Shown here one piece after another: positions 3,473 to 52,451 of a stretch of DNA of 52,495 nt. The DNA is from a phage, in the NCBI GenBank assembly GCA_028879995.1, contig GCA_028879995.1_4895.1. One strand, written 5' to 3'. Made by a program: the position numbers and the translations under genes. The notes under the pieces were generated by a model that worked only from the letters and a program-made list of their open reading frames with translations, was not told the origin of the DNA and did no database searches. The first letter of the stretch is position 1. Each line of letters begins with the position of its first letter.

Positions 3473-4186
3473 ATGGCACTTAAAACAGTTGTAACTGACC
3501 TTACCGAAGTTGATGAAGGCTTCCGTGGCCTGTATATCAAAGACGAAGCATCTGGTGCATTCCGTTTGGACGTTGAACCAGACGAAAAAACGCTGAAAGA
3601 ATTAGAAGACCTGCGCAAAGAAAAACAGCGTATGGAACAGCACACCAAAAAGCTTCTCGAAGAAAAGAAAAAAGAAGCTGAACGTGCTCGCCTGGCTGAA
3701 GAAGAACGCGCACGTCGTGAGCGTGATGTTGAATCTCTTGAGCGCTCTATCAAAGAGAAACATCAGGCTGAACTGGAACAGTATACTAATCGTCAGGCCC
3801 AGCTGCAAGCTCAGCTGGAAGCGCAAATGGTTGATAACCTGGCGCTGAACCTGGCTAACCAACTCTCTGACACCCCGGCACTTATTATGCCACACATCAA
3901 GGCCCGACTGCGCGCTCAGGAAATTGATGGTAAGTGGCGTACTACTGTCGTGGATGTTATGGGTAACCCGACTGCTACAACGCCAGATGAACTAGTGGAA
4001 CATATGCGCGCTGATAAGCAGTTTGCACCTCTTGTGCGTGGAACCAAGGCTGGCGGTGGCGGTGCCAACGGCGGCGGAGCTAATCCTGGTGGGAACGGCG
4101 GTGGCGAACAGCACACTTTCGGAGGCGGGGACGACCGCATAGCACGTGCTCGTGCTAAAATCCAAAACACACAATGGGGCAAATAA
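3473..4186 (+). CDS. Scaffolding protein
   Basis: 237 aa, highly charged coiled-coil-like E/K/R/Q-rich body, Gly-rich C-terminus; lies between portal and capsid gene. Confidence 0.6.
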   Translation: MALKTVVTDLTEVDEGFRGLYIKDEASGAFRLDVEPDEKTLKELEDLRKEKQRMEQHTKKLLEEKKKEAERARLAEEERARRERDVESLERSIKEKHQAELEQYTNRQAQLQAQLEAQMVDNLALNLANQLSDTPALIMPHIKARLRAQEIDGKWRTTVVDVMGNPTATTPDELVEHMRADKQFAPLVRGTKAGGGGANGGGANPGGNGGGEQHTFGGGDDRIARARAKIQNTQWGK

Positions 4187-5272: not shown

Positions 5273-5773
5273 ATGGCATACACACTTGTTGTGGAAGACG
5301 GTTCAATTGTTCCGGGTGCTAACTCGTATGTTAGCACTGCAGAAGTTGATGAGTTTATCACTAACGAAGGTATTCTCATTCAACCAGGAACTGACCCGTA
5401 CTACCAAGCTGCCAAAGCAGCTATCCGACTTGATAACCAGTTTAACTGGCTAGGTCGTAAGGTCAGCAAAACACAGAGCATGGCTTGGCCCCGTACTGGC
5501 CTCGGTGCATGTAATGTTGACATCGCGGAGTCTGTAATTCCGCGAGAAGTTAAGCTGGCACAGCTTTATATGATGGCCAGTGTATTGAGCTACGACGGTG
5601 AAGAAGGTGTGCGTAGCGACCAGGCTTTGCGCCGTAAGAAAGTTGGTAACCTGGAGATTGAATACTTCGACTCCAAATCAGGCGTTACCGGTGCAACTGA
5701 CCTTTGGACGTCAGACGTCAGGGCCATGCTCAAGCACCTTGTGGGTGCATCACTGAGAGCGCGGAGAGTATAA
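5273..5773 (+). CDS. Head-tail adaptor/connector-like protein
   Basis: 166 aa, first gene after the capsid terminator/promoter, RBS GGAGG; start of a translationally coupled neck operon. Confidence 0.35.
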   Translation: MAYTLVVEDGSIVPGANSYVSTAEVDEFITNEGILIQPGTDPYYQAAKAAIRLDNQFNWLGRKVSKTQSMAWPRTGLGACNVDIAESVIPREVKLAQLYMMASVLSYDGEEGVRSDQALRRKKVGNLEIEYFDSKSGVTGATDLWTSDVRAMLKHLVGASLRARRV

Positions 5774-6261
5774 TGATTCGTATACGCCTTGAACGTCGCG
5801 ACAAACAAAAGTTCGAGTTCACCTACCGTGCCTTTAAGTCGTTTGAAGGTCAAGGCGTATCAGTAGGTGTTCATCCAGAGCACAACAGACGTATAAATCC
5901 CAGGGACCGTATAACAAACGCCGAGCTAGCAATGGTGCATGAGTACGGTCTTAACGGCCTGCCAGAACGAAGCTTTCTTCGTAGTGCTGTTGGTGGCAGG
6001 GGTAAAGGCCGACAGGCAATAAACAAAGCTTTCCGCGATAATGTACCTGCTGTTCTCAGAGGAAGCATGACTGCGCATGAGCTTAACGACAAAATAGGTC
6101 GTATGCTTGTTGACGCTGTTCACGACAGAATGGACAGTGACGTGCCACCTCCTAACACCGAGCTGACAGAAGAACGCAAACGCGGGCCAGGTACACTTAG
6201 AGAATCTATGCAGTTGTATGATTCGATAGGGTACAAAGTTGGCAGAAACTGGAGGCTATAA
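5773..6261 (+). CDS. Neck/head-completion protein
   Basis: ATG 5773 overlaps upstream stop (TAATG); tool start 5704 is an upstream extension; 162 aa basic protein. Confidence 0.35.
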   Translation: MIRIRLERRDKQKFEFTYRAFKSFEGQGVSVGVHPEHNRRINPRDRITNAELAMVHEYGLNGLPERSFLRSAVGGRGKGRQAINKAFRDNVPAVLRGSMTAHELNDKIGRMLVDAVHDRMDSDVPPPNTELTEERKRGPGTLRESMQLYDSIGYKVGRNWRL

Positions 6262-6638
6262 TGCTCAAGATAACTTCGCTAATGAAGGATAAAACCTTTG
6301 TAGCATTAACAGATGTTCTTCTCCGAAATGATTCACGCTTACCAAACGGCGACTTCGAAGACGAATATACAGCTGCAAAGTATCTGTGTAACATTCAACC
6401 TGGTGCAGCTACTAACCAGCCTAACCTGTTGACTAAAGACGATGGCGAGCATGAGTTCCCACGTATTGCGATATACTGTGGACAAGAACTAAAGCTCGGA
6501 GACTTCGTTATATACGAAGACCAGCCATACCGTGTATTCCGTATCGACCCATGGAGTCGTCATGGCCACTACTACGTTACAGCAATTCTCCATAAAGGAC
6601 CTCAGGGAGCTCGTTCAGAAGCTTTTAACATTACCTGA
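6261..6638 (+). CDS. Hypothetical virion protein
   Basis: TAATG coupling to the upstream gene; 125 aa. Confidence 0.3.
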   Translation: MLKITSLMKDKTFVALTDVLLRNDSRLPNGDFEDEYTAAKYLCNIQPGAATNQPNLLTKDDGEHEFPRIAIYCGQELKLGDFVIYEDQPYRVFRIDPWSRHGHYYVTAILHKGPQGARSEAFNIT

Positions 6639-7089
6639 CGGTGCATGCATTATTGGTGAAGAGTCTGGTACAGTTGATGGTACGCCGTATGTTTATCTGC
6701 GTCCTGGTGATGCTTATGACTTCGGACCTCCTAGAACCAGACAAGGCTCTGACGGCTTTGAGTACGTCAGCAAGCCAATGATGACAGCTGTACGTATTAC
6801 AGCTGTCGGTAAGAATGCTGCTGAGCTAATGCGTAAGCTACACATAGCGCTGGGTAGTTCACCAGCTAAGCAGTTTAACCGTTTACGGCATTATGCAATA
6901 ACCAAAATATCGAAGATTGATAATGTCGGTGGTGCTATTGGTGCAGGCTATGCTCAGAAGTCAATGCTGACTGTTGATATTAGCTATGTGCATAAAGTTA
7001 AAATTGAGCAACCGTACATCTACAAGGTTGACATCACTTGTATGGATGACAACGGTAACAAAGCGACTGGTACAGTAGAGGAACCGTAA
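6562..7089 (+). CDS. Hypothetical virion protein (possible neck/tail terminator)
   Basis: First ATG at 6562; overlaps the previous ORF by 77 nt in another frame; start uncertain. Confidence 0.3.
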   Translation: MATTTLQQFSIKDLRELVQKLLTLPDGACIIGEESGTVDGTPYVYLRPGDAYDFGPPRTRQGSDGFEYVSKPMMTAVRITAVGKNAAELMRKLHIALGSSPAKQFNRLRHYAITKISKIDNVGGAIGAGYAQKSMLTVDISYVHKVKIEQPYIYKVDITCMDDNGNKATGTVEEP

Positions 7090-7712
7090 TGGCAACTGAA
7101 GTAGACCCGGAACTGCAAGCGCAGCTGGATAAGCTAACCACTGCTGTCCAGCTCATTCATGACTTCGGTATGTCAGGCGACCCAAACATCCCTAACCCGG
7201 AAGGCGGTGTCATACGCACGCTCGAAGGCATTAACGCTGCAATCAATGAAGCTATACCAAACTTTGAAAACGCTAACGAAGCTGCTATCCAGGCGCGTGC
7301 TGCTCGTGACGCGGCTATTGCAGCCAAAGAAGCTGCAGAAACGGCAGCTGAACAGGCCACAGTAGCTTCGACGTCAGCAATCTATGAGTACGGCAACGTT
7401 GCAAGTGCAGCTACCGTAACTATACCTGCTGCATCTAAAACAATTGTCAGCCTTACTCTTAACCAGCCAAACACCGTAATTAATATCGGTGGTGTATCTG
7501 ACCCGTCTACTGTTGCGCGTCAGATTACTATTGCTATTAAGCAAGGCACTGGTTCTAACAAGGTGACTTCTTGGGATCCAAGAATAAAATGGGCCAACAA
7601 CAGGAAGCCCGTTCTGTCATTCCTTGTGGGTTACACAGATGTTGTTACGTTGCTGACCTTTGACTCAGGCGCAACTTGGATGGGTTTCTTTAACGGTGGA
7701 TGGATTAAATAA
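7089..7712 (+). CDS. Hypothetical virion protein
   Basis: 207 aa, Ala/Glu-rich helical N-terminal half; TAATG coupling on both sides. Confidence 0.3.
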   Translation: MATEVDPELQAQLDKLTTAVQLIHDFGMSGDPNIPNPEGGVIRTLEGINAAINEAIPNFENANEAAIQARAARDAAIAAKEAAETAAEQATVASTSAIYEYGNVASAATVTIPAASKTIVSLTLNQPNTVINIGGVSDPSTVARQITIAIKQGTGSNKVTSWDPRIKWANNRKPVLSFLVGYTDVVTLLTFDSGATWMGFFNGGWIK

Positions 7713-10669
7713 TGCACACGATGTTGCTTAAAGACGGATCAGACCATCGAGCTAATGTCGAAAGCCTTATCGAAGGTCACCACCATTTTCTTGAGCGCAA
7801 TACTGGCAGAACTGACGACGCTACGCGTCAGCACTATATCTTCAATCCAGAAGGAGTAGTGTCGAACAACCGCCATTTTATTGCACACACCATGATGGAG
7901 TATCAACCTAACGGTGATGCTCCGTCTGAAAGTCAGTCGCTGCTAATACTCGGCGAAATTCACGCGTACCTTGCTACTAAGGAACAGCGGTACCTTGACA
8001 AAGCAATTGAGTACTTCAATGCTTACGTCAAGTACTATTACGAGGGGGACCCAATCCCTGATACTCCTCGTCGCTGGATCGCTAACTGGCTTTGTAATGG
8101 CAAAGAGCCTGTGCTAGCCAGCTTCCCAATCAACCCTGATTCACCAACACAAGGCGGCTATAAAAATGTGCCAGTTAAATTTGTTAACGGCAAAGCACAA
8201 ATCCCTCATGGTTCTCCTTTCTGGGGCGAGTACCTGGATGTTGCTACTTGGGCCCACAGGGGACACATGGCTTGGCCTGCTATTAATGGTGGTGTCCGTG
8301 TTATTAAAAATAAAGTTGACTGGGACGATATTTACAACAATTATCGCATCACTACCATGCCAGCTGACCCGTGGAATCAGTTAGCCTGGATTGACTGGCC
8401 GAGGTATCTGGGTGAACCAAGCTACACTGTGGACTGGTCTGCTGCTGAACCTCCTGTACATCTCATCGAGTATATTGTTGCATGGACCAATAACAAGATT
8501 GGTGTTCTACCTGGCAAAAACGATGAGCTATGGGGAGGTGAGATTCTTGAGACTGGACTGCCTGATTCTCGCAGAGGTGAGATTCAACTCCGTGACCATA
8601 CTATCAACGGTGTGTACCTGCTTAACTATGCTGTTAAGCTTCCTGTTGAACACGGTGGTTATTTGCTTAAGCGAAATGAAGTATGGCACAACAGACCGGT
8701 AAACGTTCCATTGTACGGCGAGCTTCAACGCGGTAATGCTGCTGATGCTGAGTTGTGGTTCTGTGACTGCTGCTATATGCTGTGGCGAATTACTAACGAG
8801 CAAAAGTATTACAACGCTTGGCAAGCTGTCCTGTTTACACTGGAGGAGTATATTGACATCGATAAACAAGACCAGTTCTTCCGACAAGACACTCACGCGT
8901 CGTCTCCGTTTACTGATGGTATCTCTTATGATTGGTCTTATCCTGAACTGGCACAAGCTATATATTCACGTGATGAAAATGGTTATATAGTTCTGCGTCA
9001 GAACGAAAAAGCTCAATCATCTCTGGAGCAACAGGCTGTATGGTTTAAGTGTAAGCCAACAGCTAAGATACGTACAGAGGTCGGTGGCAAAGATGATGCT
9101 GGTCAGAATATCAGTGTCAAGGTGGAAATGTACATGAACCGTGAGAAGGTTGACGTCGAGCAAAACATCTATCGTTTTGTCACACAGCTACCTGCTCTTG
9201 GTGCTTCGCCTGCTAACTACGACATTCCGTTAAGCGATTTTGTCGCAGGTACTAAGCCAGACGGTTCTGAGTATATCTTAGCTGATATTCGTTCATCCAC
9301 TGATTATGGTAATGCCACTATTGCAGTGTCTTACCGTACTGACATACTCGACAACAGACGTGGCAACACTGTTCGTATGACTATACCTGATAGTTCGTCA
9401 GGTGCCATTATAGGCTTTTGGCTACTGGAATCTTCCCAGGCACCTTTAAACTCGCTGACGTATACTTCTACAGGTCCGTTGTGCATCAAAGTAACTGACG
9501 CGCAAGGCTGGAGCTGGGTACGTGATTTACCTGCCGCATCAGGCTGGGTAACTCAGCAGATTCGCACCTGGGAGTTCAGGCTGGCGTCATACCAGGAAAA
9601 CACAGGTACACCACCAGCTAGCCCACAATTCGGCGAGATTAAGCAGTTCTCGTTTGTACTGCCTGACGGCGTTAATACGTCGACAAGTATTAGCTGGTAC
9701 TGTGTGAATGATGTTCCGCCTCGCTATAACTGGCCAATTGGTTATACGATTAAGTATCGTCTTACTTTCTCGGCTGATAACCCGTACACAGCTAAGCTTG
9801 GCGACTGTACTGTGCTGGACTATGAGAATGATAACCTTGCTTACACGCCAGGTGTTATTCCGTTCTCCAACATTTATAACCCTGATTCTAAGCAGTTCGA
9901 TGGTTGGCACGGTATACCTTACCCTGGCTATCAGTATCCGTTTGTCTTTACGCATGACGATACTGCAGCAGGTACAATCAGGCTGAACAACATGGTTAAC
10001 TTTTTGTACGATTCTCAGCAATGGTACTTTAAGAAGTTTGGTCAGCTAGGTCCTGGCGCATCTGCTTTTATCTGGAACCGTTGGGATAACTTTAAATACG
10101 GTGTACCTGATACGTTTACCATGTATCACTGGGGTAATGGTAGTGCATGGTCAGGTTACCAGCCTCGTGCTTATTTCTCCGCAGCACGTGGATGGTATGA
10201 GCTAGTAAACCGTGGTAAGCCAGTTCCGAGTAAGCTTATTGCTTATGTGGATAACTGGTCAAAATGGTTGCTTGACTTCATGGAAAGGTCAGGAGGTGTG
10301 TCGCCTTCTAACTTCCCACAAGAAGGTGTTGCTCTGCCAGTCCCTTCAGACTTCACAGGTCACATGTGCGGACTATGGCTTGCTGGTGCAGCTATGTCAG
10401 CCCTTTGTGGGTCAATGGTATCAGGACTGGATAAGCTGATGGACATGCTTGTTAATGAACTGGAAGACCATTACGACATAACTGGTATTCCGGGGCATGT
10501 AATGGATGGTGGTTGGTCACCAGCGTTACGCCTTGAAACTGGTTCAGGACCTGAAAGCAACGCCATGTACTATGGTTTTTACTCTGGCGAAATATTACGA
10601 GGGTTGGGCTTATACCTGCTGTACAAAAACAAAGGGGCTAAAGCAGATATTTATGATTTAGGCCCGTAA
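7712..10669 (+). CDS. Large virion-associated protein, possible carbohydrate-active/receptor-interacting protein
   Basis: 985 aa, Trp/Tyr/Gly-rich; in the structural operon between neck genes and Ig-like proteins; function inferred from composition and position only. Confidence 0.3.
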   Translation: MHTMLLKDGSDHRANVESLIEGHHHFLERNTGRTDDATRQHYIFNPEGVVSNNRHFIAHTMMEYQPNGDAPSESQSLLILGEIHAYLATKEQRYLDKAIEYFNAYVKYYYEGDPIPDTPRRWIANWLCNGKEPVLASFPINPDSPTQGGYKNVPVKFVNGKAQIPHGSPFWGEYLDVATWAHRGHMAWPAINGGVRVIKNKVDWDDIYNNYRITTMPADPWNQLAWIDWPRYLGEPSYTVDWSAAEPPVHLIEYIVAWTNNKIGVLPGKNDELWGGEILETGLPDSRRGEIQLRDHTINGVYLLNYAVKLPVEHGGYLLKRNEVWHNRPVNVPLYGELQRGNAADAELWFCDCCYMLWRITNEQKYYNAWQAVLFTLEEYIDIDKQDQFFRQDTHASSPFTDGISYDWSYPELAQAIYSRDENGYIVLRQNEKAQSSLEQQAVWFKCKPTAKIRTEVGGKDDAGQNISVKVEMYMNREKVDVEQNIYRFVTQLPALGASPANYDIPLSDFVAGTKPDGSEYILADIRSSTDYGNATIAVSYRTDILDNRRGNTVRMTIPDSSSGAIIGFWLLESSQAPLNSLTYTSTGPLCIKVTDAQGWSWVRDLPAASGWVTQQIRTWEFRLASYQENTGTPPASPQFGEIKQFSFVLPDGVNTSTSISWYCVNDVPPRYNWPIGYTIKYRLTFSADNPYTAKLGDCTVLDYENDNLAYTPGVIPFSNIYNPDSKQFDGWHGIPYPGYQYPFVFTHDDTAAGTIRLNNMVNFLYDSQQWYFKKFGQLGPGASAFIWNRWDNFKYGVPDTFTMYHWGNGSAWSGYQPRAYFSAARGWYELVNRGKPVPSKLIAYVDNWSKWLLDFMERSGGVSPSNFPQEGVALPVPSDFTGHMCGLWLAGAAMSALCGSMVSGLDKLMDMLVNELEDHYDITGIPGHVMDGGWSPALRLETGSGPESNAMYYGFYSGEILRGLGLYLLYKNKGAKADIYDLGP

Positions 10670-29812: not shown

Positions 29813-30697
29813 TTATACGGCCATTTGGAGTTTGATGTTTGGCATTGGTTTGTACTTCTCAACCATTGGCGTAACATCGGCAGGAGTGAAGTCAAACACT
29901 GACACGTCGTAAATTGCGTTAATGTCAGGACGACGTTCAAAGTTAGTGTCCAGTGTAGTATCAGAATTGCTTACGATACGTTGCAGGAAAATCTTTGCCG
30001 CATCGATATGATTCTGATAGATATGATAATCACCCAGCGTAACAGTCATGTCGCCAACACCAGTACCCAGCTCAGCAGCAATGGTAATCTGCAGCATTTG
30101 ATGCAACAGAATATCGTGAGGCAGACCAAGAATAACATCCGCGCTACGCATGTGGAACATCAGCTCTAATTCATTACGGTTGTTAATGAACAGCTGAAAA
30201 CCATGGTAACAAGGCGGAAGGGCCATGGCGTCCATCTCTTGTGGGTTCCACGCCGTAATGTACGCCCGGCGGTCAGTAGGCTTAACCTTCAGCGTTTCAA
30301 TAACGTCTTTAAGCTGGTTAGTAAGAACACCATTCTTATAGAAAGGCTTAATCCATTGTACGCCGTACACAGGACCTAAGTCACGATTGTCTGGCGTACC
30401 CCAACGTTTGTTTGCGTCCTGCAGGTTACCTTCCCACCAGTTGCAGCCAAAGCCTTTTAGCGTGTCGACGTTTGAAATGCCGTTGATAAAGCAGTAAAGC
30501 TCAGCAGCAACAGCTTTGATGTTAACAGGTTTAAACACCGGCACCATCAGTTTGTTATCGTTGAAAGCCAGCTTAAACGCTGTACCAAAACAACGGCGTG
30601 TACCAACACCTGTACGGTCTACAACATCCTCGCCTTTACGCAGGATAAAAGAAATGATGTCGCTGTAAAGAGAATCGACAGTGCTGTATGTTTTCAT
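29813..30697 (-). CDS. Thymidylate synthase-family pyrimidine C5 transferase, predicted dCMP-specific (hydroxymethylase or methylase)
   Basis: ThyA motifs DRTGVGT, DLGPVYGVQW, DRRAYITAWNP, MALPPCY, RSADVILGLPHDILL, GDYHIYQNH; the Asn of E. coli ThyA PFNIAS is Asp here (LPHDIL). Confidence 0.7.
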   Translation of the reverse strand: MKTYSTVDSLYSDIISFILRKGEDVVDRTGVGTRRCFGTAFKLAFNDNKLMVPVFKPVNIKAVAAELYCFINGISNVDTLKGFGCNWWEGNLQDANKRWGTPDNRDLGPVYGVQWIKPFYKNGVLTNQLKDVIETLKVKPTDRRAYITAWNPQEMDAMALPPCYHGFQLFINNRNELELMFHMRSADVILGLPHDILLHQMLQITIAAELGTGVGDMTVTLGDYHIYQNHIDAAKIFLQRIVSNSDTTLDTNFERRPDINAIYDVSVFDFTPADVTPMVEKYKPMPNIKLQMAV

Positions 30698-31290
30698 TAA
30701 AACAGTTCCTTTTGAGCCGGGTTAACGTGTGCGTCGATGATGGCCTGGATGTCAGGTGCTTTCCATCCTTCAGGTTTAACAATGTCCTGGCCAGACTTAT
30801 GCTTACTGTTGCTTGCATCAGGCTTAGCACGTTCTTTCGCCATGTTAGCAGCTTGTACCGCATCCCATGCAGCGTCAAGTGGCCAGTTGTTGTTTGCGCA
30901 CCAGGTAATCAGGTGGATAATTAACTGGGCCAGACGGTCGCAATGAGTGTCTTCAGTATCCTTAACGTATACAATAAGGCCATCAGCATCGAAACGGTCC
31001 ATAAATCCGCATGGCGTAGTTAACAGAATCGGATACTCAAATTCGTTGGTGAACCATGCAGTCTGGTCATACAGGTATAACGTACCTGCAGCAATGTAAA
31101 TTAAATCTACAATACCGTCTAAGAAGCCAGCTTTGTCGCCGTCTTTCTTAGCTTGTTTAATTTCTTCCATCTCCTCAATAAGACGGTCGTAACGAAGCTT
31201 GAACTCAGGTTTACCGCCTTGACTAACAGGCTTGAGGTCAAACTTCTCATGAAAAGCGGTAACGCCTGCAGCAATTTTACTGAATCGCAT
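30697..31290 (-). CDS. MazG-like all-alpha NTP pyrophosphohydrolase (candidate dCTPase/dUTPase)
   Basis: 197 aa, N-terminal EExxE-type helical motifs (HEKF...RLIEEMEEI...DLIYIA); TAATG-coupled to the ThyA-family gene; RBS AAGGAG. Confidence 0.45.
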   Translation of the reverse strand: MRFSKIAAGVTAFHEKFDLKPVSQGGKPEFKLRYDRLIEEMEEIKQAKKDGDKAGFLDGIVDLIYIAAGTLYLYDQTAWFTNEFEYPILLTTPCGFMDRFDADGLIVYVKDTEDTHCDRLAQLIIHLITWCANNNWPLDAAWDAVQAANMAKERAKPDASNSKHKSGQDIVKPEGWKAPDIQAIIDAHVNPAQKELF

Positions 31291-34864: not shown

Positions 34865-35743
34865 TTATTTTAAGGAAAGTTTAACGGGCTTCTCATCCTG
34901 TGGGAAGACATCAGCAGGGCGATACTCATCGCAAGCCGCTAATTGCTCTTCGATTGTTTCGAGCTCTTTCTGGTGCTTGTTGCAGTACCACACTTTGCCC
35001 TGAAGCGGTTTACTGTAATGGCAGGTTCTGCAGTTCCTGTCTGGCATTGCTCCTTTGTGGCACAGGTGATGGTATTCGCACATCCCTGGCTTGCACTCCC
35101 ACCAGATAGGTGATTCAGAAATCTTCGGCATATCCAAACCAGATTCCGCATATACAACAGCCTCCGCTTTACTCAGCTGTATGTCGCTTTCCAGTAAGTC
35201 AATCTCGACCACCTCAAAATACATCTCATCAGTGTTCTTGTTGATTGCAATATACACAGCTTGATTCAGCTTAAGCTTCCGCATGTATACCTGCATCTGG
35301 GCGTAGTGTACCGGCTTACTTGCTTTAACAGACTTGAGCTTGACTAACTCTTTAAACGACTTATCGCCATGCGTCTTGAATTCAGCAAGTGCCCATACGC
35401 CTTTGTATTTGATCACACAGTCACAAGACCCAGAGAATATGCCATTGAATTCATGTATGCGCCATTGCTTACCAGTCTTAGGATTGACGTCCAGCACTTC
35501 GTCACATACGGAACGAAGCCACTTTACAATTCTGCTTTCTTCAAGGTTACCGCGTTCAAACAGACGAAGTTGCTTAGCCGTAAACTTCTCCTTGAACGAC
35601 CAGTGCAGTACATGCCAAAGATAGCGATAGCAGTTGTGCCCTATCTGCGATGCTCCAAGATGCCCGCGTCGTTCTTCTCTTTCGTGGGCTTCGACTATCT
35701 TGATGTCAATACGTTTCTGCAGGTCGTCAAACGGACTGGACAT
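34865..35743 (-). CDS. PD-(D/E)xK nuclease, Cas4/RecB-like with Cys cluster
   Basis: ATG 35743 with RBS GAGGAG; D...EFK core, QxxxY motif (HYAQMQVY), N-terminal Cys plus C-terminal C...C...C cluster. Confidence 0.6.
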   Translation of the reverse strand: MSSPFDDLQKRIDIKIVEAHEREERRGHLGASQIGHNCYRYLWHVLHWSFKEKFTAKQLRLFERGNLEESRIVKWLRSVCDEVLDVNPKTGKQWRIHEFNGIFSGSCDCVIKYKGVWALAEFKTHGDKSFKELVKLKSVKASKPVHYAQMQVYMRKLKLNQAVYIAINKNTDEMYFEVVEIDLLESDIQLSKAEAVVYAESGLDMPKISESPIWWECKPGMCEYHHLCHKGAMPDRNCRTCHYSKPLQGKVWYCNKHQKELETIEEQLAACDEYRPADVFPQDEKPVKLSLK

Positions 35744-36212
35744 TGTTAAACTCCTCAACACTGAATTCATCGTACACAATATTATGTGCCCACAAATGAG
35801 CGACGGCATTTGCCATGCTATCTTTCCATTTGGATTGTGAAGCTGTATGTGCCAATGCAACTACACGTACCAGGTTAAGGTTGGCTATCAGCATGTCAGC
35901 GCAATGTTCGCACGGCGGGTAGGTTATGTAGATGGTAACCGGGCCTAAAGAAGGAGTGTCTAACTCGCTCCTTATATTAGCTAAGGTGTTTATCTCGCTA
36001 TGAATAGTTAGAGCGTTCTTGAGGCTATTAGGCACTATTCTTATAGAGTCTAACTGCGTAGGCAGACCGTTATATCCAGTGGAAATAATACGCTTGTTCT
36101 GGTCCACAAGAACGCTACCGACTTGACGTTTCGGGTCCTTCGACCAGCTTGCAACTTCACAAGCTATACGCATAAACCGCCTGTCCCACTTGTCCATCTT
36201 CTTCTTTTGCAT
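35727..36212 (-). CDS. dCMP deaminase
   Basis: Zinc-binding HSE...PCEHC motifs and a dCMP-deaminase-like N-terminus (WDRRFMRIA.EVA.WS). Confidence 0.8.
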   Translation of the reverse strand: MQKKKMDKWDRRFMRIACEVASWSKDPKRQVGSVLVDQNKRIISTGYNGLPTQLDSIRIVPNSLKNALTIHSEINTLANIRSELDTPSLGPVTIYITYPPCEHCADMLIANLNLVRVVALAHTASQSKWKDSMANAVAHLWAHNIVYDEFSVEEFNNVQSV

Positions 36213-38068: not shown

Positions 38069-38098
38069 ATTATACACCACTTACATGGGGTAAGTACA
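38069..38098 (-). promoter_or_regulatory. sigma70-like promoter (minus) TGTACT-N18-TATAAT
   Basis: TGTACT-type -35 variant. Confidence 0.4.
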
Positions 38099-39584: not shown

Positions 39585-39613
39585 ATTATAGCACTAGTGA
39601 GTGGTGAAGTACA
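39585..39613 (-). promoter_or_regulatory. sigma70-like promoter (minus) TGTACT-N17-TATAAT
   Basis: Upstream of gene 38597-39502; spacer contains perfect palindrome CACTAGTG. Confidence 0.45.
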
Positions 39614-44861: not shown

Positions 44862-45209
44862 TAAGCTTATTTTACAAACTGATTAATATTTAAACTATAA
44901 TTAAATATATGGGCTATAAGAGTATGATTTTATTACTCTTTTACTAACCATAATATATGGGCTCCTTATAAAAGATTAAGGGGGTAAAAAAGGGGGTACA
45001 AGTACCGGATAAAAGGGGGGATATATTTATTTATTATTATTATTATTATTATATATTATTAATTATATTAGAAGTAATAAAAACAGCTACTTAGAGGCGT
45101 CTATATGTATGATCCGGTTTATCTCTTTATTAATATCAGAACCGGATGAAAAAAATTTACGCCGGCGAAAAATAATAAAAAACCGGACTGATAAATAAAT
45201 CTGTAGACG
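44862..45209. repeat. AT-rich repeat-dense noncoding region (candidate replication origin)
   Basis: Two ATATATGGGCT copies, purine-rich AAGGGGGTA repeats (44977-45021), (TTA)n microsatellite near 45027-45051, inverted repeat ATCCGGTT/AACCGGAT (45112-45148); no ORF. Confidence 0.45.
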
Positions 45210-47336: not shown

Positions 47337-47591
47337 AATGCATCCACCCAAGCCATAACTTTTGCCAGTCTTACAACGTCTTCATGGTCTCGCTCGCCAT
47401 CAGAAAATTCGCTGGCGATGATACCCATAATTGACGCCAGATTCATGTTGATGATGTATGAGTGTTCCCGCACTTCATCAATTCCTGAATCTATCACCAA
47501 TTCCGCAAATTCCTGCGAACCTTCATCCCATTCAGCCCAATACTGCTCAGCATAAAAGTCCAGTTCTTTTTTTCATCTCAATATCAGTCAT
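47333..47591 (-). pseudogene. Small acidic protein gene interrupted at an A7 homopolymer (frameshift)
   Basis: ATG 47591 with RBS GAGGAG gives MTDIEMKK then stop; with A6 instead of A7 (plus 47567-47573) the frame stays open to TGA 47333-47335. Confidence 0.35.
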
Positions 47592-48825: not shown

Positions 48826-49042
48826 AATAGTTACTCCTGCTATTAGTTTCCAGGCGTGGCTACTGCTTCCAATAGCCACTAGTTGAAACTATTACCAGCG
48901 TTACTATCAACAAGAAACATGTTACCAAATTGTTAAAGAGCGGTCTGGTACTATTCGACCAGGTAAAGTTGATGTTTGCGCATCTTGACGACACGCGCCA
49001 GACAAGACGCTTGACACATTCATCATTCGTCTTGATGTAATA

Positions 49043-49071
49043 ATTATAGGCCAGTCAATCAATGTTGTACA
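49043..49071 (-). promoter_or_regulatory. sigma70-like promoter (minus) TGTACA-N17-TATAAT for the leftward small-gene cluster
   Basis: Plus-strand attata 49043-49048 and tgtaca 49066-49071. Confidence 0.45.
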
Positions 49072-49182
49072 TAAAAGAATTGCAAGTTTATGCAAGTTTT
49101 TAGAAATGATAATCACTTGCGATTGAGAGTGGTTCTCGTATGCAATTGATATAGTTTCGCATGTAATTACTCACTTCAAAAT

Positions 49183-49240
49183 GGTCGGCAGGGGTTATAA
49201 TCACATAGGGGTGCCACTTAAAGGAGCCGGCGAAATTATT
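49183..49240. repeat. Approx. 58-nt GC-rich repeat unit R1
   Basis: Shares with R2 the pattern GGT.CGGC.GGGG-TAAT-C.CA-GGGGTGC.AC.T-AGGAGCC.GC.AAATT.TTTAT. Confidence 0.5.
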
Positions 49241-49358
49241 TATAAAAATATAATTTCAATCTGAATTATAGACGCTTTGTGTTATAACGGCCGAAGTAGT
49301 TCATACGGTAATTGTATCAATCGCAATAGTTACCAAAGTAATCATTTCAATTGAAATA

Positions 49359-49416
49359 GGTGCGGCGGGGGGTAATTTCGCAGGGGTGCTACCTGCCAGG
49401 AGCCAGCAAAATTTTT
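49359..49416. repeat. Approx. 58-nt GC-rich repeat unit R2
   Basis: Second copy about 176 bp downstream of R1, same orientation. Confidence 0.5.
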
Positions 49417-49566
49417 TATTTTTTGGTATTTTCTCCTTATCAGGACCAATCATCATCAGAGTAATACGGCAGGAGCTAACCTTTTGCTTAACACAATAAT
49501 AAGTGAAGCCCCTCTAAAAATTTTTTATATTTTTCGGAAATTGTGTAGACACTCACTAAAAAGTGG

Positions 49567-49595
49567 TGTACTTTCTCTCCTCCACGCGCTATCAT
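49567..49595 (+). promoter_or_regulatory. sigma70-like promoter TGTACT-N17-TATCAT for the rightward DHFR/kinase operon
   Basis: About 40 nt upstream of the first plus-strand gene. Confidence 0.4.
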
Positions 49596-49645
49596 TAATG
49601 TGAATCATCAAACGGCCTCACGGTCTCCTACTTGTGGGTAACATT

Positions 49646-50122
49646 ATGAAAATTGTTCAATTAGAGCCATATCCGCCTCAATTGGCTATCGTTTGTAGCG
49701 AAAAAGAGCACGAAGAGCTCCAAAAACTGATGGATTTGCCTGATTTTGGCAACTGGAATGACCGGGAAACGCGTAATGCATCTACTTTTACGTTCACTCG
49801 CGTTAACTATCCGTACCTGTTAATTGTCGTCGAACTGTATCACCCGGACGACCTGAAGTACAACACCATTTCCCACGAAGGCATTCACGTAATGTCATCG
49901 CTGATGAACTATGTAGGGCTTAAATACGACCCAGAAAACGATGAATGGTACGCATATCAGCATGATTTCATCGTAAATGCCATTTGTAAGGCCCATGACG
50001 AGTATATAGAGCGTCAAAAAACGCCAAAAACTAAGCCAAAAATCGAAACAGGTAACCATCCTGCAATACTGCCACAAGACGTAATGAACTCGCTTTTGAC
50101 TGACACTACTGGGGACTTTTAG
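49646..50122 (+). CDS. Hypothetical protein with HExxH motif (possible small zinc metallopeptidase-like protein)
   Basis: ATG 49646 (tool start GTG 49634); single HEGIH motif; first gene after plus promoter 49567-49595. Confidence 0.3.
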   Translation: MKIVQLEPYPPQLAIVCSEKEHEELQKLMDLPDFGNWNDRETRNASTFTFTRVNYPYLLIVVELYHPDDLKYNTISHEGIHVMSSLMNYVGLKYDPENDEWYAYQHDFIVNAICKAHDEYIERQKTPKTKPKIETGNHPAILPQDVMNSLLTDTTGDF

Positions 50123-50797
50123 GTGATTAATATAATCTTCGCAATGGGCCAAAATGGGGAATTCGGGTTATCTCCGGAGTTTATGAAGCATCAGGTTGAC
50201 TCGTGTAAGACCATGGATGAGGTTCGTGCGCTTCCTAAATCGGGTCTCCCTTGGAAATGTCCGTCAGATATGCTCTTTTTCAGGACTATGACTAATTCAA
50301 TTGCGTCAGAACCAGGCTATAATGCGTATCAGCAACTACGTGGACAGTTCCCAAATGACCAGTTGCGAAACATGATAGCAGATGTAACTGTAAAAATGGT
50401 CGGGCATAGTGTATTGTTAGCCGGTCGTAATACGTATATGACTATGAGTCTGCCTATGTCAGCCCACAGAATACTGCTGCCTGTATCTCGTCAGATTATG
50501 GCTTCAGAAGGCTACAATAATTTGGGTGAGATGGCAGCAGACCTTGAATCCAGAGGTACTGACGTCTGGATTGTAGGCGGTGCCGAGTTGATACTTTCGG
50601 CCCTTGAAGAGCATGCAAAAGACTTACTCCGTATCGACAACATGTTTATCAGTACAATCAAGCAATCAGGTCCAAGTGATATTTTAATGGATTGTAGCAA
50701 ATTAATGATGTACATTGATAGCGACTTCACTTATAATGATGAATATGTTGATAACAAACAAGTTCTGATACAACGGTACAGGAGTTTACACAAATGA
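50123..50797 (+). CDS. Dihydrofolate reductase-like protein
   Basis: GTG 50123; DHFR-like N-terminus MINIIFAMGQNGEFG, LPWKCPSDMLFFRTMT (compare E. coli MPWNLPADLAWFKRNT), IVGGAELILSAL; contains a long insertion. Confidence 0.55.
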   Translation: MINIIFAMGQNGEFGLSPEFMKHQVDSCKTMDEVRALPKSGLPWKCPSDMLFFRTMTNSIASEPGYNAYQQLRGQFPNDQLRNMIADVTVKMVGHSVLLAGRNTYMTMSLPMSAHRILLPVSRQIMASEGYNNLGEMAADLESRGTDVWIVGGAELILSALEEHAKDLLRIDNMFISTIKQSGPSDILMDCSKLMMYIDSDFTYNDEYVDNKQVLIQRYRSLHK

Positions 50798-51300
50798 ACA
50801 TCATAATCGAGGGGCCCGACAATGCTGGTAAAAGTACACTTATTGAGTTCCTTAAATCTCATACTGGCCGCAGTGTTATTCATAATACTGTTGATAAAGA
50901 CCCCGAATCGGTCATGGCTAAACAGGCCAAAGAAAACGCGTTGGAGGGCGATTGCATTTATGACCGTAGCGCTGTTATATCTGAGTATATCTATTGCCTG
51001 GTTCTTCAACGTACGCCTGTCATCAATATTAATGTATCACATGTAGCAGATATGTGTGACAACGCCATCGTTATCTTTTGTATGCCGCCTGTTGAAAAGG
51101 TACTGGCAACTACAAAAGACGAGATGCCTGGCGTTGTGGAAAATCTTGAGGCGTTATACAATCAGTATGACAACCTCATTGACGAGCTGGTTATGATGAG
51201 TAAGCAGTTCTTCATTTACGACTGGACTGTTGAAGAAGATGGTCCTGAAGCAGCTCTCGAATACATCAACGAACGTATTAATAAGGAGTGGAACAAATGA
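50794..51300 (+). CDS. Deoxynucleoside monophosphate kinase (thymidylate-kinase-like P-loop kinase)
   Basis: N-terminal P-loop IIIEGPDNAGKSTL; 168 aa; ATGA coupling to the DHFR-like gene. Confidence 0.55.
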   Translation: MNIIIEGPDNAGKSTLIEFLKSHTGRSVIHNTVDKDPESVMAKQAKENALEGDCIYDRSAVISEYIYCLVLQRTPVININVSHVADMCDNAIVIFCMPPVEKVLATTKDEMPGVVENLEALYNQYDNLIDELVMMSKQFFIYDWTVEEDGPEAALEYINERINKEWNK

Positions 51301-52016
51301 GCCCAGTATACAATACCTCAGTCACGCTGTCCGCAACCGTAAGCGGCGTCAACAAGACAGTTACTGTGGGTTCAACTAACCCAAACCTGACAGGCGAAGA
51401 CCTGCTGCGCCTGGCCAAACGTGCACTTGAAGATAACGAAGTAACTGGTACTGAAGGCGTTAACATTGAAATTAACGTCGAAGGATGTCCGCACAGCATC
51501 AGTATTGCTACCTCTTCATTGCCTGAAGACGAGACTCGTGAACAGCTGGAAATTAAAAAGTTCAACGATGAGCTGGAATATCGCACAGGTGAGATGTTCA
51601 GCAGTGCACTAAACTGGTACTTGTGCAAGGCTTCAAACTACGCTGGCGCTCCTATGTCAGACCGTATGTTAGCTGATATGTCAGCACGTGAAATTGCTAA
51701 AGGCTGGGCGCATGTACAGATGCTGCAAGAGCATATCTGCAAGCTGGAAAGCTGCAATAAAGACGCGTCTGAGCTTATTACTGCCTATAAGCGACAGATT
51801 AACGACCTGCAGCAACTGATGGGTAAACGCGCTGAAGAATATGAGGCTGAGATTCGCAGTCTTAATGGTACAGCTGTTGCTAACAACCGTGCTTTCAGCG
51901 AAGAGCGTAAAGCGCTTATCGCCCAGCGTGACGCTGAAAAACGTCGTGCAGACGACCTGGCAGACCGTCTTAACTTTATCCGTAAGCACATGGATGCTAT
52001 GGAAGGGGTAATCTGA
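51297..52016 (+). CDS. Hypothetical protein
   Basis: ATG 51297 with RBS AAGGAG (tool start 51288 is GTG); 239 aa, coiled-coil-like C-terminal half. Confidence 0.4.
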   Translation: MSPVYNTSVTLSATVSGVNKTVTVGSTNPNLTGEDLLRLAKRALEDNEVTGTEGVNIEINVEGCPHSISIATSSLPEDETREQLEIKKFNDELEYRTGEMFSSALNWYLCKASNYAGAPMSDRMLADMSAREIAKGWAHVQMLQEHICKLESCNKDASELITAYKRQINDLQQLMGKRAEEYEAEIRSLNGTAVANNRAFSEERKALIAQRDAEKRRADDLADRLNFIRKHMDAMEGVI

Positions 52017-52306
52017 TGGACCTGTTCGATATGGTCGAACATCCTGAAGTAAACGGCTTGGCGGAAGCTAAGCCTTTTAACTGGGATGAATTCGTAGCAG
52101 GCAAACCTGCTGTAACCCACAACGGGCAGATTGCATATTACGGAGGCCATAGCGAACATCCGATGTGCACTCACCTGTACAACGCTATCACAACCATATC
52201 CGACGAAAACGTTATTAAGTACGGAAAAGAGGTAATGCCTTTTCTTGTAGATGAACGCGGTTACTTCGAAGGTAAATGGTTCCCGTTTCTGGTAGAAATG
52301 GCCTAA
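52016..52306 (+). CDS. Hypothetical protein
   Basis: 96 aa; ATG overlaps upstream stop. Confidence 0.35.
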   Translation: MDLFDMVEHPEVNGLAEAKPFNWDEFVAGKPAVTHNGQIAYYGGHSEHPMCTHLYNAITTISDENVIKYGKEVMPFLVDERGYFEGKWFPFLVEMA

Positions 52307-52422: not shown

Positions 52423-52451
52423 TTTACTTACTTCGCGTAACTCGTTATAAT
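52423..52451 (+). promoter_or_regulatory. sigma70-like promoter TTTACT-N17-TATAAT
   Basis: Exact consensus upstream of the gene starting at 52484. Confidence 0.55.

Follow-up and report, generated by a model that had tools for sequence, protein, structure and literature searches.

A dihydrofolate reductase and a divergent P-loop kinase as probable auxiliaries of an Xp12-like 5-methylcytosine pathway in Salmonella phage BP63

What is the role of a phage operon which joins a dihydrofolate reductase (DHFR)-like protein and a P-loop kinase with three other proteins? The window, i.e. the whole stretch of 52,495 nucleotides analysed here, is the rotated genome of Salmonella phage BP63 (Rosemountvirus), and the five operon ORFs are 100% identical to its gp14-gp18. 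The original prediction had proposed a translationally coupled rightward operon behind a TGTACT-type promoter and a folate-dependent modified-nucleotide pathway, with either 5-methyl- or 5-hydroxymethyl-dCMP as the product. The ORFs are located on the plus strand: gp14 (49646-50122, 158 aa, HEGIH at residues 77-81), gp15 (50123-50797, 224 aa, GTG start), gp16 (50794-51300, 168 aa, GPDNAGKST), gp17 (51297-52016, 239 aa) and gp18 (52016-52306, 96 aa). The junctions are, in order, TAG directly followed by GTG (0 nt), ATGA, ATGA and TGATG. Four such tight junctions make translational coupling of gp14-gp18 plausible, as had been predicted. Loughboroughvirus S144, fHy-Eco03, KE25 and Erwinia phage SOI901 have the corresponding genes in the same order, i.e. 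the operon is syntenic across the clade.

The promoter-like element (49546-49595, plus strand) consists of TGTACT (49567-49572) and TATCAT (49590-49595) separated by 17 nt. An alternative pair, TAGACA (49546-51)-N17-TACTTT, overlaps it, and an A/T tract at about 49517-49535 precedes it. The element is not a strong sigma-70 match and was not called by a generic sigma-70 scan; the predicted TGTACT type was nevertheless borne out in two ways. TGTACT-N16-18-TATNAT occurs three times in the window compared to 0.10 expected (0 of 100 shuffles reached three), and the promoter blocks CTAAAAAGTGGTGTACTTT and GCTATCATTA are unchanged across five diverged relatives. The other two copies are on the minus strand, upstream of the gp66-Sak4-SSB-deaminase unit (38069-38098) and of gp68 (39585-39613). 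The arrangement AAAA..GTGTACTT..TATAAT is common to the operon promoter and two replication-module promoters. A TGTACT-N17-TATCAT promoter just inside the terminal repeat, from which we infer the transcription start, appears to drive the operon, and its type recurs before two replication-module operons. At the right-hand operon end a promoter-like site, TTTACT-N17-TATAAT (52423-52451, plus strand), is situated before gp19 and the terminase gene. A 5'-UTR hairpin was unsupported (z-scores -0.3 to -0.7) and TGTAGAC was not enriched (10 observed, 7.7 expected); scans of the upstream gap gave neither a tRNA nor an Rfam match.

The identity of gp15 was examined by profile and structure searches. 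It scored 29.2 bits against Pfam DHFR_1 (PF00186, FolA type; cut-off 25) and matched the DHFR family phrog_316 at 1.8e-26 and the PDB DHFR 1zdr at 4.4e-5. In E. coli numbering W22, D27, F31, G43/R44/T46, R57, G95/G96 and D122 are conserved; T113 is replaced by Ser and Y100 by Ile. D27, W22, F31 and R57 are conserved in five clade members, with a shift of one residue needed to align R57. BP63 carries the NADPH motifs GRNT and GG; S144 has Val in place of R44. The predicted long insertion was correct, though insertions number two, one of 22 aa in the Met20 loop and one of about 35 aa that separates helix B from strand B, both clade-specific. By these matches gp15 is a dihydrofolate reductase of the FolA type which has kept its catalytic residues. 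Because of Ile at Tyr100 and the 22-aa insertion in the Met20 loop its activity is not certain.

The kinase gp16 is more divergent. It matched phrog_761 at 1.8e-26, and PHROG and GenBank label it 'thymidylate kinase'. The proposed P-loop dNMP kinase was upheld at the level of the superfamily; the curated thresholds for thymidylate kinases (TMKs) were missed (PF02223, 16.3 of 27 bits; TIGR00041, 20.4 of 83.25 bits). The best Pfam match, dNK, was also below cut-off (19.4 of 27). Among solved structures SPbeta YorR (PDB 2axp) was best at 3.4e-8 over residues 3-133, followed by TMKs, dGK and GMK. YorR matched far better than vaccinia TMK (2v54; E 0.0016 over residues 3-156) or M. tuberculosis TMK, where the P-loop alone aligned. 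The same was true when the gp16 family was compared with E. coli Tmk and Cmk by hhalign, which did not discriminate between the two. The P-loop EGxDxxGK(S/T)T and DR(Y/H/F) motifs are present (IIIEGPDNAGKST), 12 family members share D57 and R58 without exception, and LID arginines as in TMKs are not apparent in gp16. gp16 resembles YorR (2axp/3kb2), itself uncharacterised, in its EGPD..K(S/T) P-loop, its DR motif and its length of about 170 aa. Judged by motifs and profiles, gp16 is a divergent P-loop NMP/dN-kinase-like protein of the YorR/TMK/dNK type; with dNK as its best Pfam match, it might even act on deoxynucleosides. It is the sole small N-terminal Walker-A protein and NMP-kinase-like gene in the BP63 genome.

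Which nucleotide might such an enzyme pair serve? About 20 kb away from the DHFR/kinase operon, on the minus strand, BP63 encodes a thymidylate synthase (TS) homologue, gp55 (29813-30697; Pfam 1e-62), a predicted dCMP 5-methyltransferase. Adjacent is gp56 (30697-31290, minus strand), a PRA-PH/MazG-like nucleotide pyrophosphohydrolase (PPase; Pfam PRA-PH 1.9e-7) and predicted dCTPase. The dCMP-deaminase-family protein gp63 (35727-36212, minus strand; Pfam 3.3e-21) is a candidate 5-methyl-dC nucleotide deaminase. In the published residue code N177D specifies dCMP, a hydrophobic residue at 143 (Leu) methyl transfer and D169N 5-hydroxylation (PMC13326640, PMC8670742); the Leu143 rule is correlative, and the alignment of Xp12 itself is ambiguous at this position. 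In gp55 Asp is located at the position of E. coli N177 (GLPHDILL), Leu at 143 (MALPPC) and Asp at 169 (RSAD), the C-terminus is ...KLQMAV, and the remaining catalytic residues are present. This is the published 5-methyl-dCMP signature. Asp177 is common to the TS homologues of BP63, fHy-Eco03, S144, PaMx74 and Xp12. Those of Xp12 and PaMx74 were shown to make 5mdCMP, with deaminase, PRA-PH and PolA genes linked, and the function of gp63-class deaminases has been described (bioRxiv 10.1101/2024.12.05.627091). BP63 PPase, TS and deaminase matched their Xp12 counterparts at 3e-9, 1.5e-23 and 9e-19, respectively; gp56 is homologous to the PPases of Xp12 and PaMx74, and gp63 is 34% identical to the deaminases of both. 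A point against this parallel is a 2025 paper, which states that these genera do not have the large set of nucleotide-modifying genes seen in the Xp12 family.

The kinase is tied to such TS homologues by gene neighborhood. In all unrelated phage lineages sampled (10/10) a gp16-type kinase is located at most three genes from an Asp177 TS homologue; this link is new here. Because of it gp16 is a strong candidate for a modified-dCMP kinase, with 5-methyl-dCMP as the candidate substrate. In Vibrio phage VAP7 a TS homologue with Asp177 and Leu143, the kinase and a DHFR are clustered. Some gp16-like kinases have a neighbouring TS homologue in which position 143 is Asp or Arg, and the Asp-type TS homologues beside those of actinophages are very divergent. 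A gp16-like kinase is missing from the known 5mC phages Xp12 and PaMx74; hence the kinase is not universal to the 5mC pathway. Published in vivo assays of 5mdC or 5hodC incorporation co-express a phage dNMP kinase (PMC13326640; bioRxiv 10.1101/2024.12.05.627091). A wider reading may be ventured, to which we give somewhat less than an even chance: PHROG 761, invisible to Pfam, would be a widespread, previously unrecognised phage kinase family for C5-modified dCMP and the partner of dCMP-directed TS homologues, in BP63 and VAP7 a 5-methyl-dCMP kinase activity would for the first time have a gene, and the whole Rosemountvirus/Loughboroughvirus group would be fully 5mC-substituted.

Taken as a whole, the best explanation, and in our judgment a probable one, is an Xp12-like pre-replicative replacement of cytosine by 5-methylcytosine in BP63 DNA, aided by gp15 and gp16; the operon would then comprise two auxiliary enzymes of a modification pathway and three non-metabolic proteins. 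In this scheme gp56 would convert dCTP to dCMP, thus excluding dC, and gp55 would reductively methylate dCMP with methylene-THF to 5-methyl-dCMP and dihydrofolate (DHF). gp15 would regenerate tetrahydrofolate with NADPH, gp16 would add a phosphate to 5-methyl-dCMP, and from the resulting diphosphate host NDP kinase would make 5-methyl-dCTP for the phage polymerase. As in Xp12, gp63 may turn part of the 5-methyl-dC nucleotide pool into thymidine nucleotide. Each C and possibly each T would cost one DHF, which would explain why the phage retains a DHFR. The predicted assignment of DHFR and kinase to a folate-dependent modified-nucleotide pathway gained from the TS signature, the 10/10 kinase linkage and the DHFR present in every Xp12-family 5mC phage: all eight Pamexvirus-group phages (8/8) encode one next to the deaminase-TS-PPase genes, and that of AXL1 is functional.

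The product could instead be 5-hydroxymethyl-C or a different derivative at C5, perhaps with further decoration as in T4 or RB69-like systems. The DHFR would then merely serve host ThyA and gp16 would act on that derivative. Asp177 is common to hydroxymethylases and 5-hydroxylases as well (PMC13326640), His147 is Tyr in the TS homologues of this clade, and such a substrate would agree with the gp16-like kinases whose TS neighbours have Asp or Arg at 143. Restriction data are available from relatives, with few enzymes; from these and the gene set we infer the base in BP63. Of the enzymes tried on S144 DNA only SspI and PacI, whose sites consist of A and T, cut it; this published panel does not separate 5mC from 5hmC. 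fHy-Eco03 DNA was cut by ScaI and blocked 9 of 10 enzymes. ScaI partially cleaves the 5mC DNA of Xp12, yet not the 5hmC DNA of T4gt; Xp12 DNA blocks NcoI, NotI, SphI, AflII, Sau3AI, SmaI, XhoI and SacII. Thus, the data from relatives fit 5mC better than 5hmC. Furthermore, gp55 keeps Leu143, where a T4-type 5hmC enzyme has an acidic residue, as well as Asp169 and the TS-like C-terminus for the reductive step. Hydroxymethylation yields THF and makes a DHFR needless, yet the whole clade keeps one. No glycosyltransferase or tailoring domain was detected in the ORFs scanned. On the question which the original prediction had posed, these points favour 5-methyl-dCMP; a hydroxymethyl or related product is unlikely.

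The original prediction had also considered the remaining ORFs as candidates for further modification steps. This found no support. gp14 is a small gluzincin-like putative metallopeptidase: H77, E78, H81 and E100, together with Y104, are invariant in 61 homologues, Glu100 fits the pattern of the third zinc ligand, and the C-terminal tail is conserved. The label 'Ku protein' on the S144 homologue was unsupported. Two remote gp14 homologues were located on short contigs with uninformative genomic context. The AF2 model of gp17 (pLDDT 79) has a beta-beta-alpha-beta domain (residues 1-71), an acidic variable linker, a helix (77-112) and a helix of 117 residues (122-238, coiled coil). Its homologues are restricted to this phage clade, and Foldseek searches of the model against BFVD and PDB gave no match beyond the clade except coiled-coil noise; as modelled, gp17 is a long coiled coil with no enzyme-like fold, i.e. 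non-enzymatic. gp18 matched phrog_29999 alone and nothing in Pfam, NCBIfam or PDB, and tblastn matches were confined to the clade; by these searches it is a clade-specific orphan. Its homologue in fHy-Eco03, g17, was non-toxic in E. coli. The gp17 homologue of fHy-Eco03 was seen by MS. The 'structural protein' labels on the gp14, gp15 and gp17 homologues of this phage were rejected as evidence for a structural role: DNA polymerase, TS, helicase, SSB, primase and terminase carry this MS label too, and it shows expression only. Ten other hypothetical BP63 ORFs were scanned and had no glycosyltransferase, TET or methyltransferase domain. Most likely, gp14, gp17 and gp18 stand outside the chemistry.

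Could the operon then be a transcription unit without common function, with DHFR and kinase as general nucleotide boosters and the modification in relatives on guanine or post-replicative, by unidentified genes? Such a view agrees with three proteins unconnected to nucleotide chemistry and with the 20 kb to the TS-PPase pair, and restriction data of S144 and fHy-Eco03 alone cannot tell C from G modification. However, annotation and Pfam scans contained no DpdA/Que-type or methyltransferase genes, PPase, Asp-type TS, deaminase and DHFR mirror the Xp12 set gene for gene, and the VAP7 cluster unites TS, kinase and DHFR. We consider a lack of common function quite improbable. A plain dTTP supply module (dCMP deaminase to dUMP, TS to dTMP and DHF, recycling by DHFR, gp16 as TMK) which leaves the DNA unmodified by this route, as published for S144 and ZCSE2 and as the 'thymidylate kinase' labels and the same four activities in T4 cd/td/frd would suggest, is very improbable, because Asp instead of Asn at 177 switches the TS of the clade to dCMP, DNA of relatives resists nearly all enzymes with G/C in their sites, and gp16 misses the TMK thresholds in a family which tracks Asp-type TS homologues.

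How does the proposed 5-methylcytosine pathway compare with known systems? With that of Xp12 and the Pamexvirus group (Mesyanzhinovviridae) BP63 shares the PRA-PH, TS, deaminase and DHFR families, TS with Asp at N177, a DHFR that is always present, resistance at G/C sites (known from relatives of BP63), and a family-A polymerase, a helicase and a Cas4-like nuclease in the same module. In contrast to Xp12 the genes are dispersed: TS and PPase are together, the deaminase is 5 kb off and the DHFR about 20 kb off in its own operon. Its DHFR is of the classical FolA type with two insertions whereas that of Xp12 is of a short type (the alignment is marginal, E 0.005), and the gp16-type kinase is an addition to the sets of Xp12 and PaMx74. 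Further, BP63 is a myovirus of Enterobacteria, and in its clade 5mC is predicted from genes and restriction data.

The T4 dNTP set consists of cd, td, frd, gp42 dCMP hydroxymethylase, gp56 dCTPase and gp1 dNMP kinase. The order of events would be alike, from a dCTPase to a C5-modifying TS homologue to a phage dNMP kinase and host NDK, with phage DHFR and deaminase. BP63 differs by having one TS homologue only, which by L143 (instead of D/E) is of the methylase type, by a kinase which, placed with YorR/TMK/dNK, had no match to the T4 gp1-type family in library scans, and by the glucosyltransferases, of which none were found in BP63; DNA of its relative is cut by ScaI.

Phages of the genera Rosemountvirus and Loughboroughvirus have been widely put forward for biocontrol of Salmonella and E. 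coli. For S144 and fHy-Eco03 two papers reported an 'unknown modification'; the present analysis assigns a probable Xp12-like 5mC pathway and names candidate genes. If true, full 5mC substitution affects host range via restriction evasion and McrBC/Mrr-type sensitivity as well as sequencing and cloning of these phages. The phages would then also supply enzymes for producing modified DNA in E. coli: a dCMP methyltransferase, a compact kinase for 5-methyl-dCMP and possibly a deaminase of 5mC nucleotides.

Through its linkage to Asp177 TS homologues the kinase also offers a way into a large cassette of actinophages and the product of its TS homologue. This cassette, also present in Serratia phage Serbin and Clostridium phage CPD4 among others, runs kinase, MazG/dUTPase-like PPase, X, TS (Asp177), deaminase and PolA. 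It has the same kinase family, PPase, Asp-type TS, deaminase and family-A polymerase as BP63. It differs by contiguous genes, a very divergent TS with Arg or Asp at 143, an extra protein of 270-350 aa and a DHFR that is usually absent. Among these lineages solely VAP7 has the trio of BP63, a TS homologue with Asp177 and Leu143, the kinase and a DHFR.

The region matched Salmonella phage BP63 (Rosemountvirus, NC_031250/KM366099) at 100% identity and ~45 further myoviruses of Salmonella and E. coli at 95-97%. Coordinates convert to the BP63 record as x+7406 up to ~45031 and as x-45089 from 45089 onwards. The window has an extra 57-nt AT-rich segment (TATTATTATTATTATTATTATATATT...) at 45032-45088, at the joined ends of the linear GenBank record, and differs by one additional T near 47567. 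Thus, the window is a rotated, slightly fuller assembly of BP63. The predicted five-ORF rightward operon was confirmed. It consists of gp14 (49646-50122, the HExxH ORF), gp15 (50123-50797, GTG start), gp16 (50794-51300, the sole operon gene named in GenBank, as 'thymidylate kinase'), gp17 (51297-52016) and gp18 (52016-52306), all on the plus strand. The junctions, in order, are TAG directly followed by GTG, ATGA, ATGA and TGATG; therefore the five ORFs are tightly coupled. The order is kept in Loughboroughvirus S144, fHy-Eco03, KE25 and Erwinia phage SOI901, whose proteins are as little as 36-60% identical: HExxH gene, zero to two small extra ORFs, DHFR, kinase, gp17-like, gp18-like, a promoter-bearing gap, a putative small terminase and the large terminase. 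All four relatives have one or two such small ORFs separating the HExxH gene from DHFR; BP63 has none. In KE24 and JEP7 an HNH or homing endonuclease is inserted beside the operon. GenBank entry PP583539 ('Listeria phage 220426122051') is 95% identical to the Salmonella/E. coli phages over the operon, which makes its Listeria host label doubtful.

gp15 scored 29.2 against the Pfam DHFR profile, above the gathering score of 25, and matched the phage DHFR family PHROG 316 as well as solved DHFRs. It was aligned with the E. coli, L. casei and human enzymes. In this alignment W22, D27, F31, G43-R44-x-T46, R57, G95-G96 and D122 were retained, T113 was replaced by Ser and Y100 by Ile. The 'long insertion' of the original prediction was correctly seen and turned out to be two clade-specific ones, 22 aa in the Met20 loop and ~35 aa between helix B and strand B. 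Judged by these matches and residues, gp15 is a dihydrofolate reductase and likely to be enzymatically active. The S144 DHFR (3501-4172) differs from other clade members by a Val at R44, the NADPH 2'-phosphate site (AGVKTY).

A source of dihydrofolate is suggested by gp55 (29813-30697, minus strand), a full-length thymidylate synthase (TS) homologue (Pfam 1e-62). It shares ~40% identity with genuine TS enzymes and has a TS-like C-terminus (...KLQMAV). Asp replaces Asn177 of E. coli TS (GLPHDILL), and the remaining catalytic residues are kept except for H147, which is Tyr. The N177D exchange turns TS specificity from dUMP to dCMP (PMC8670742), and Asp177 is conserved in the TS homologues of fHy-Eco03 and S144. 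Methylating enzymes tend to have a hydrophobic residue at position 143, hydroxymethylating ones Asp or Glu; D169N is the mark of 5-hydroxy-dCMP synthases (PMC13326640). D177, L143 and D169 of gp55 are, from sequence, a 5-methyl-dCMP signature. The exchange of the conserved His147, beside the catalytic Cys, for Tyr occurs across the BP63 clade; PaMx74 has Pro. A PRA-PH/MazG-like pyrophosphatase gene adjoins gp55, and a dCMP-deaminase homologue is located 5 kb away.

These genes were compared with those of the classic 5mC phage Xp12, in which every C is replaced and whose TS homologue makes 5mdCMP in vivo (bioRxiv 10.1101/2024.12.05.627091). Xp12 and PaMx74 are described as having C wholly replaced by 5mC, and in both the TS gene is linked to those for a deaminase-family enzyme, PRA-PH and PolA (bioRxiv 10.1101/2024.12.05.627091). 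The one deaminase of this class to have been characterised, mSCD-B5 from a metagenomic contig, has 5mdCTP as substrate (bioRxiv 10.1101/2024.12.05.627091). A 5-methyl-dCTP deaminase activity is induced on Xp12 infection (Wang and Ehrlich 1982). In the Xp12 and PaMx74 genomes we found pyrophosphatase, TS (Asp177), deaminase and DHFR in a single block. DHFR is encoded by all eight phages of the Xp12/PaMx74 group, and that of AXL1 confers trimethoprim resistance (PMC9206674). The BP63 proteins are homologous to those of Xp12 (pyrophosphatase 3e-9, TS 1.5e-23, deaminase 9e-19); the two DHFRs aligned only marginally. With gp15 as DHFR the complete Xp12 set is thus present in BP63, yet it is dispersed whereas that of Xp12 and PaMx74 is contiguous.

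The alternative product, 5hmC, was weighed against published digests of relatives. S144 DNA was cut by SspI and PacI only, both with AT-only sites, and was labelled 'modified on cytosine', with the responsible genes not named there (PMC7432712). With fHy-Eco03 DNA nine of ten enzymes were blocked; ScaI alone cut, with fragments as predicted, and the modification was labelled 'unknown' (PMC8145870). In the NEB survey ScaI cleaved the 5mC-containing Xp12 DNA partially and the 5hmC-containing T4gt DNA not at all, and NcoI, NotI, SphI, AflII, Sau3AI, SmaI, XhoI and SacII were blocked on Xp12 DNA (PMC7653180 and supplement). Overall the pattern agrees more closely with 5mC than with 5hmC. In ten further hypothetical ORFs, Pfam scans detected no domain of a glycosyltransferase, dioxygenase or methyltransferase.

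The kinase gp16 matched PHROG 761 ('thymidylate kinase') at 1.8e-26 and remained below every curated threshold (dNK 19.4, TMK 16.3, TIGR00041 20.4 bits). Among solved structures it is closest to YorR, an uncharacterised SPbeta protein (2axp, 3.4e-8), followed by thymidylate, deoxyguanosine and guanylate kinases, and alignment of its profile with E. coli Tmk and Cmk was limited to the P-loop. The family conserves EGPDNAGKS, D57-R58 and a few further positions; among the small proteins of the BP63 genome gp16 alone has an N-terminal Walker A motif. From these motifs gp16 is a divergent P-loop kinase. What it may act upon was approached via its neighbours. From a longer match list ten matches in phages of different host genera were sampled and their surroundings inspected: Gordonia Pons, Serratia Serbin, Mycobacterium NoShow, Clostridium CPD4, Pseudomonas STP12, Microbacterium Triscuit, Pelagibacter HTVC200P, Streptomyces KimJongPhill, Mycobacteroides Maco6 and Vibrio VAP7. 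A TS homologue was located at most three genes from the kinase in 10/10 (a raw count), and all nine that were aligned carry Asp177. The STP12 homologue, unannotated and placed by tblastn, is 50% identical to the Asp-type enzyme of Serbin; Triscuit has a canonical Asn-type ThyA in addition to its Asp-type TS. The association of gp16-type kinases with Asp177 TS homologues, as read from gene order, is new here. When modified dC was assayed in vivo in published work, a phage dNMP kinase was co-expressed (bioRxiv 10.1101/2024.12.05.627091; PMC13326640). From this and the gene association we infer that gp16 phosphorylates the gp55 product. BP63 differs in this respect from Xp12 and PaMx74, the genomes of which have no gp16-type kinase.

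The usual cassette comprises helicase, kinase, a MazG/dUTPase-like pyrophosphatase, a 270-350-aa protein of no assigned function, TS (Asp), deaminase and PolA. It was seen in Pons, Serbin, NoShow, CPD4, Triscuit, KimJongPhill and Maco6, where the TS homologue is very divergent, with Asp177 and Arg at position 143; a cytosine modification not yet described may be present in such phages. VAP7 (Ackermannviridae) has the order phosphatase, TS, HAD, gp16-like kinase, hypothetical, DHFR at 5598-9865. Its TS is canonical apart from Asp177 and Leu143. The predicted 5-methyl-dCMP trio of TS (Asp177, Leu143), kinase and DHFR is the one seen in BP63, and in VAP7 it is clustered.

Most likely, then, BP63 has an Xp12-like 5-methylcytosine substitution pathway of which gp15 and gp16 are members. 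A gp55-type dCMP methyltransferase would yield dihydrofolate, gp15 would recycle it, and 5-methyl-dCMP would be phosphorylated by gp16. The gp55 signature, the Xp12 gene set and the kinase-TS association bear out the original prediction that DHFR and kinase serve a modified-nucleotide pathway. The 'unknown modification' of the BP63 phage group thereby gains an explanation that is named and testable, and the pathway makes the gp16 family a candidate family of modified-dCMP kinases.

Of the other three operon proteins, the two unknown ones (gp17 and gp18) had been proposed as candidates for further modification steps. An exhaustive search identified 128 homologues of gp14, small proteins of ~115-175 aa. 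Across 61 of these, H77, E78, H81, E100 and Y104 do not vary and, from their pattern, are a gluzincin-type motif. Only a few members weakly match SprT-like, M78, DUF5700 or DUF6782, and a C-terminal tail, IETGNHP...DFL(D/N)D, is common to the clade. In the predicted model of gp17 (pLDDT 79) a beta-beta-alpha-beta domain of 70 residues is joined by an acidic linker, variable in sequence, to a helix of 117 residues. Its homologues were restricted to the BP63 clade, and structure searches (BFVD, PDB) gave no neighbours outside it. Among phages >90% identical its length varies from 225 to 242 aa by indels in the acidic linker (residues ~64-85). gp18 is a clade-specific orphan in Pfam, NCBIfam, PDB and tblastn searches; its fHy-Eco03 homologue is non-toxic in E. 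coli. None of the three resembles an enzyme that modifies nucleotides or DNA, and the proposal is wrong or at least unsupported. The 'virion-associated' mass spectrometry labels of fHy-Eco03 also extend to polymerase, TS, helicase, primase and terminase and so demonstrate expression, nothing more. Virion proteomics of fHy-Eco03 and of S144 detected DHFR and TS. T4 DHFR was once claimed to be a baseplate component; contamination is the simpler reading because most fHy-Eco03 replication proteins were detected, too.

The promoter proposed for the operon is a TGTACT element (49567-72), 17 nt and TATCAT (49590-95) on the plus strand, which would put the transcription start near 49602. A generic sigma-70 scan did not call it. 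The window contains three copies of TGTACT-N16-18-TATNAT where 0.10 would be expected, a number that 0 of 100 shuffles attained. Five diverged relatives have unchanged core blocks within drifting flanks. The overlapping TAGACA-N17-TACTTT is an alternative reading. The other two copies (TGTACT-N16-17-TATAAT, minus strand) are at 38069-38098, ahead of the gp66-Sak4-SSB-deaminase unit, and at 39585-39613, ahead of gp68. Each precedes a replication-module operon and both have the same upstream box, AAAA..GTGTACTT. This suggests a phage-specific promoter class common to the DHFR-kinase operon and replication-module units. The sigma-70 scan did identify TTTACT-N17-TATAAT at 52423-52451 (plus strand), ahead of gp19 at the right end of the operon.

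A non-coding gap of 750 nt (48895-49645) separates the operon from a leftward small-gene cluster; Rfam and tRNA searches of it gave no match. It contains two imperfect ~90-nt direct repeats at 49176-49270 and 49352-49446 (GGGGTGCyAC..AGGAGCCrGCrAAATTwTTTAT). fHy-Eco03 has a 3699-bp terminal repeat which ends 268 nt before the HExxH gene. By analogy, the terminal-repeat boundary of BP63 should be near 49380, within this gap.
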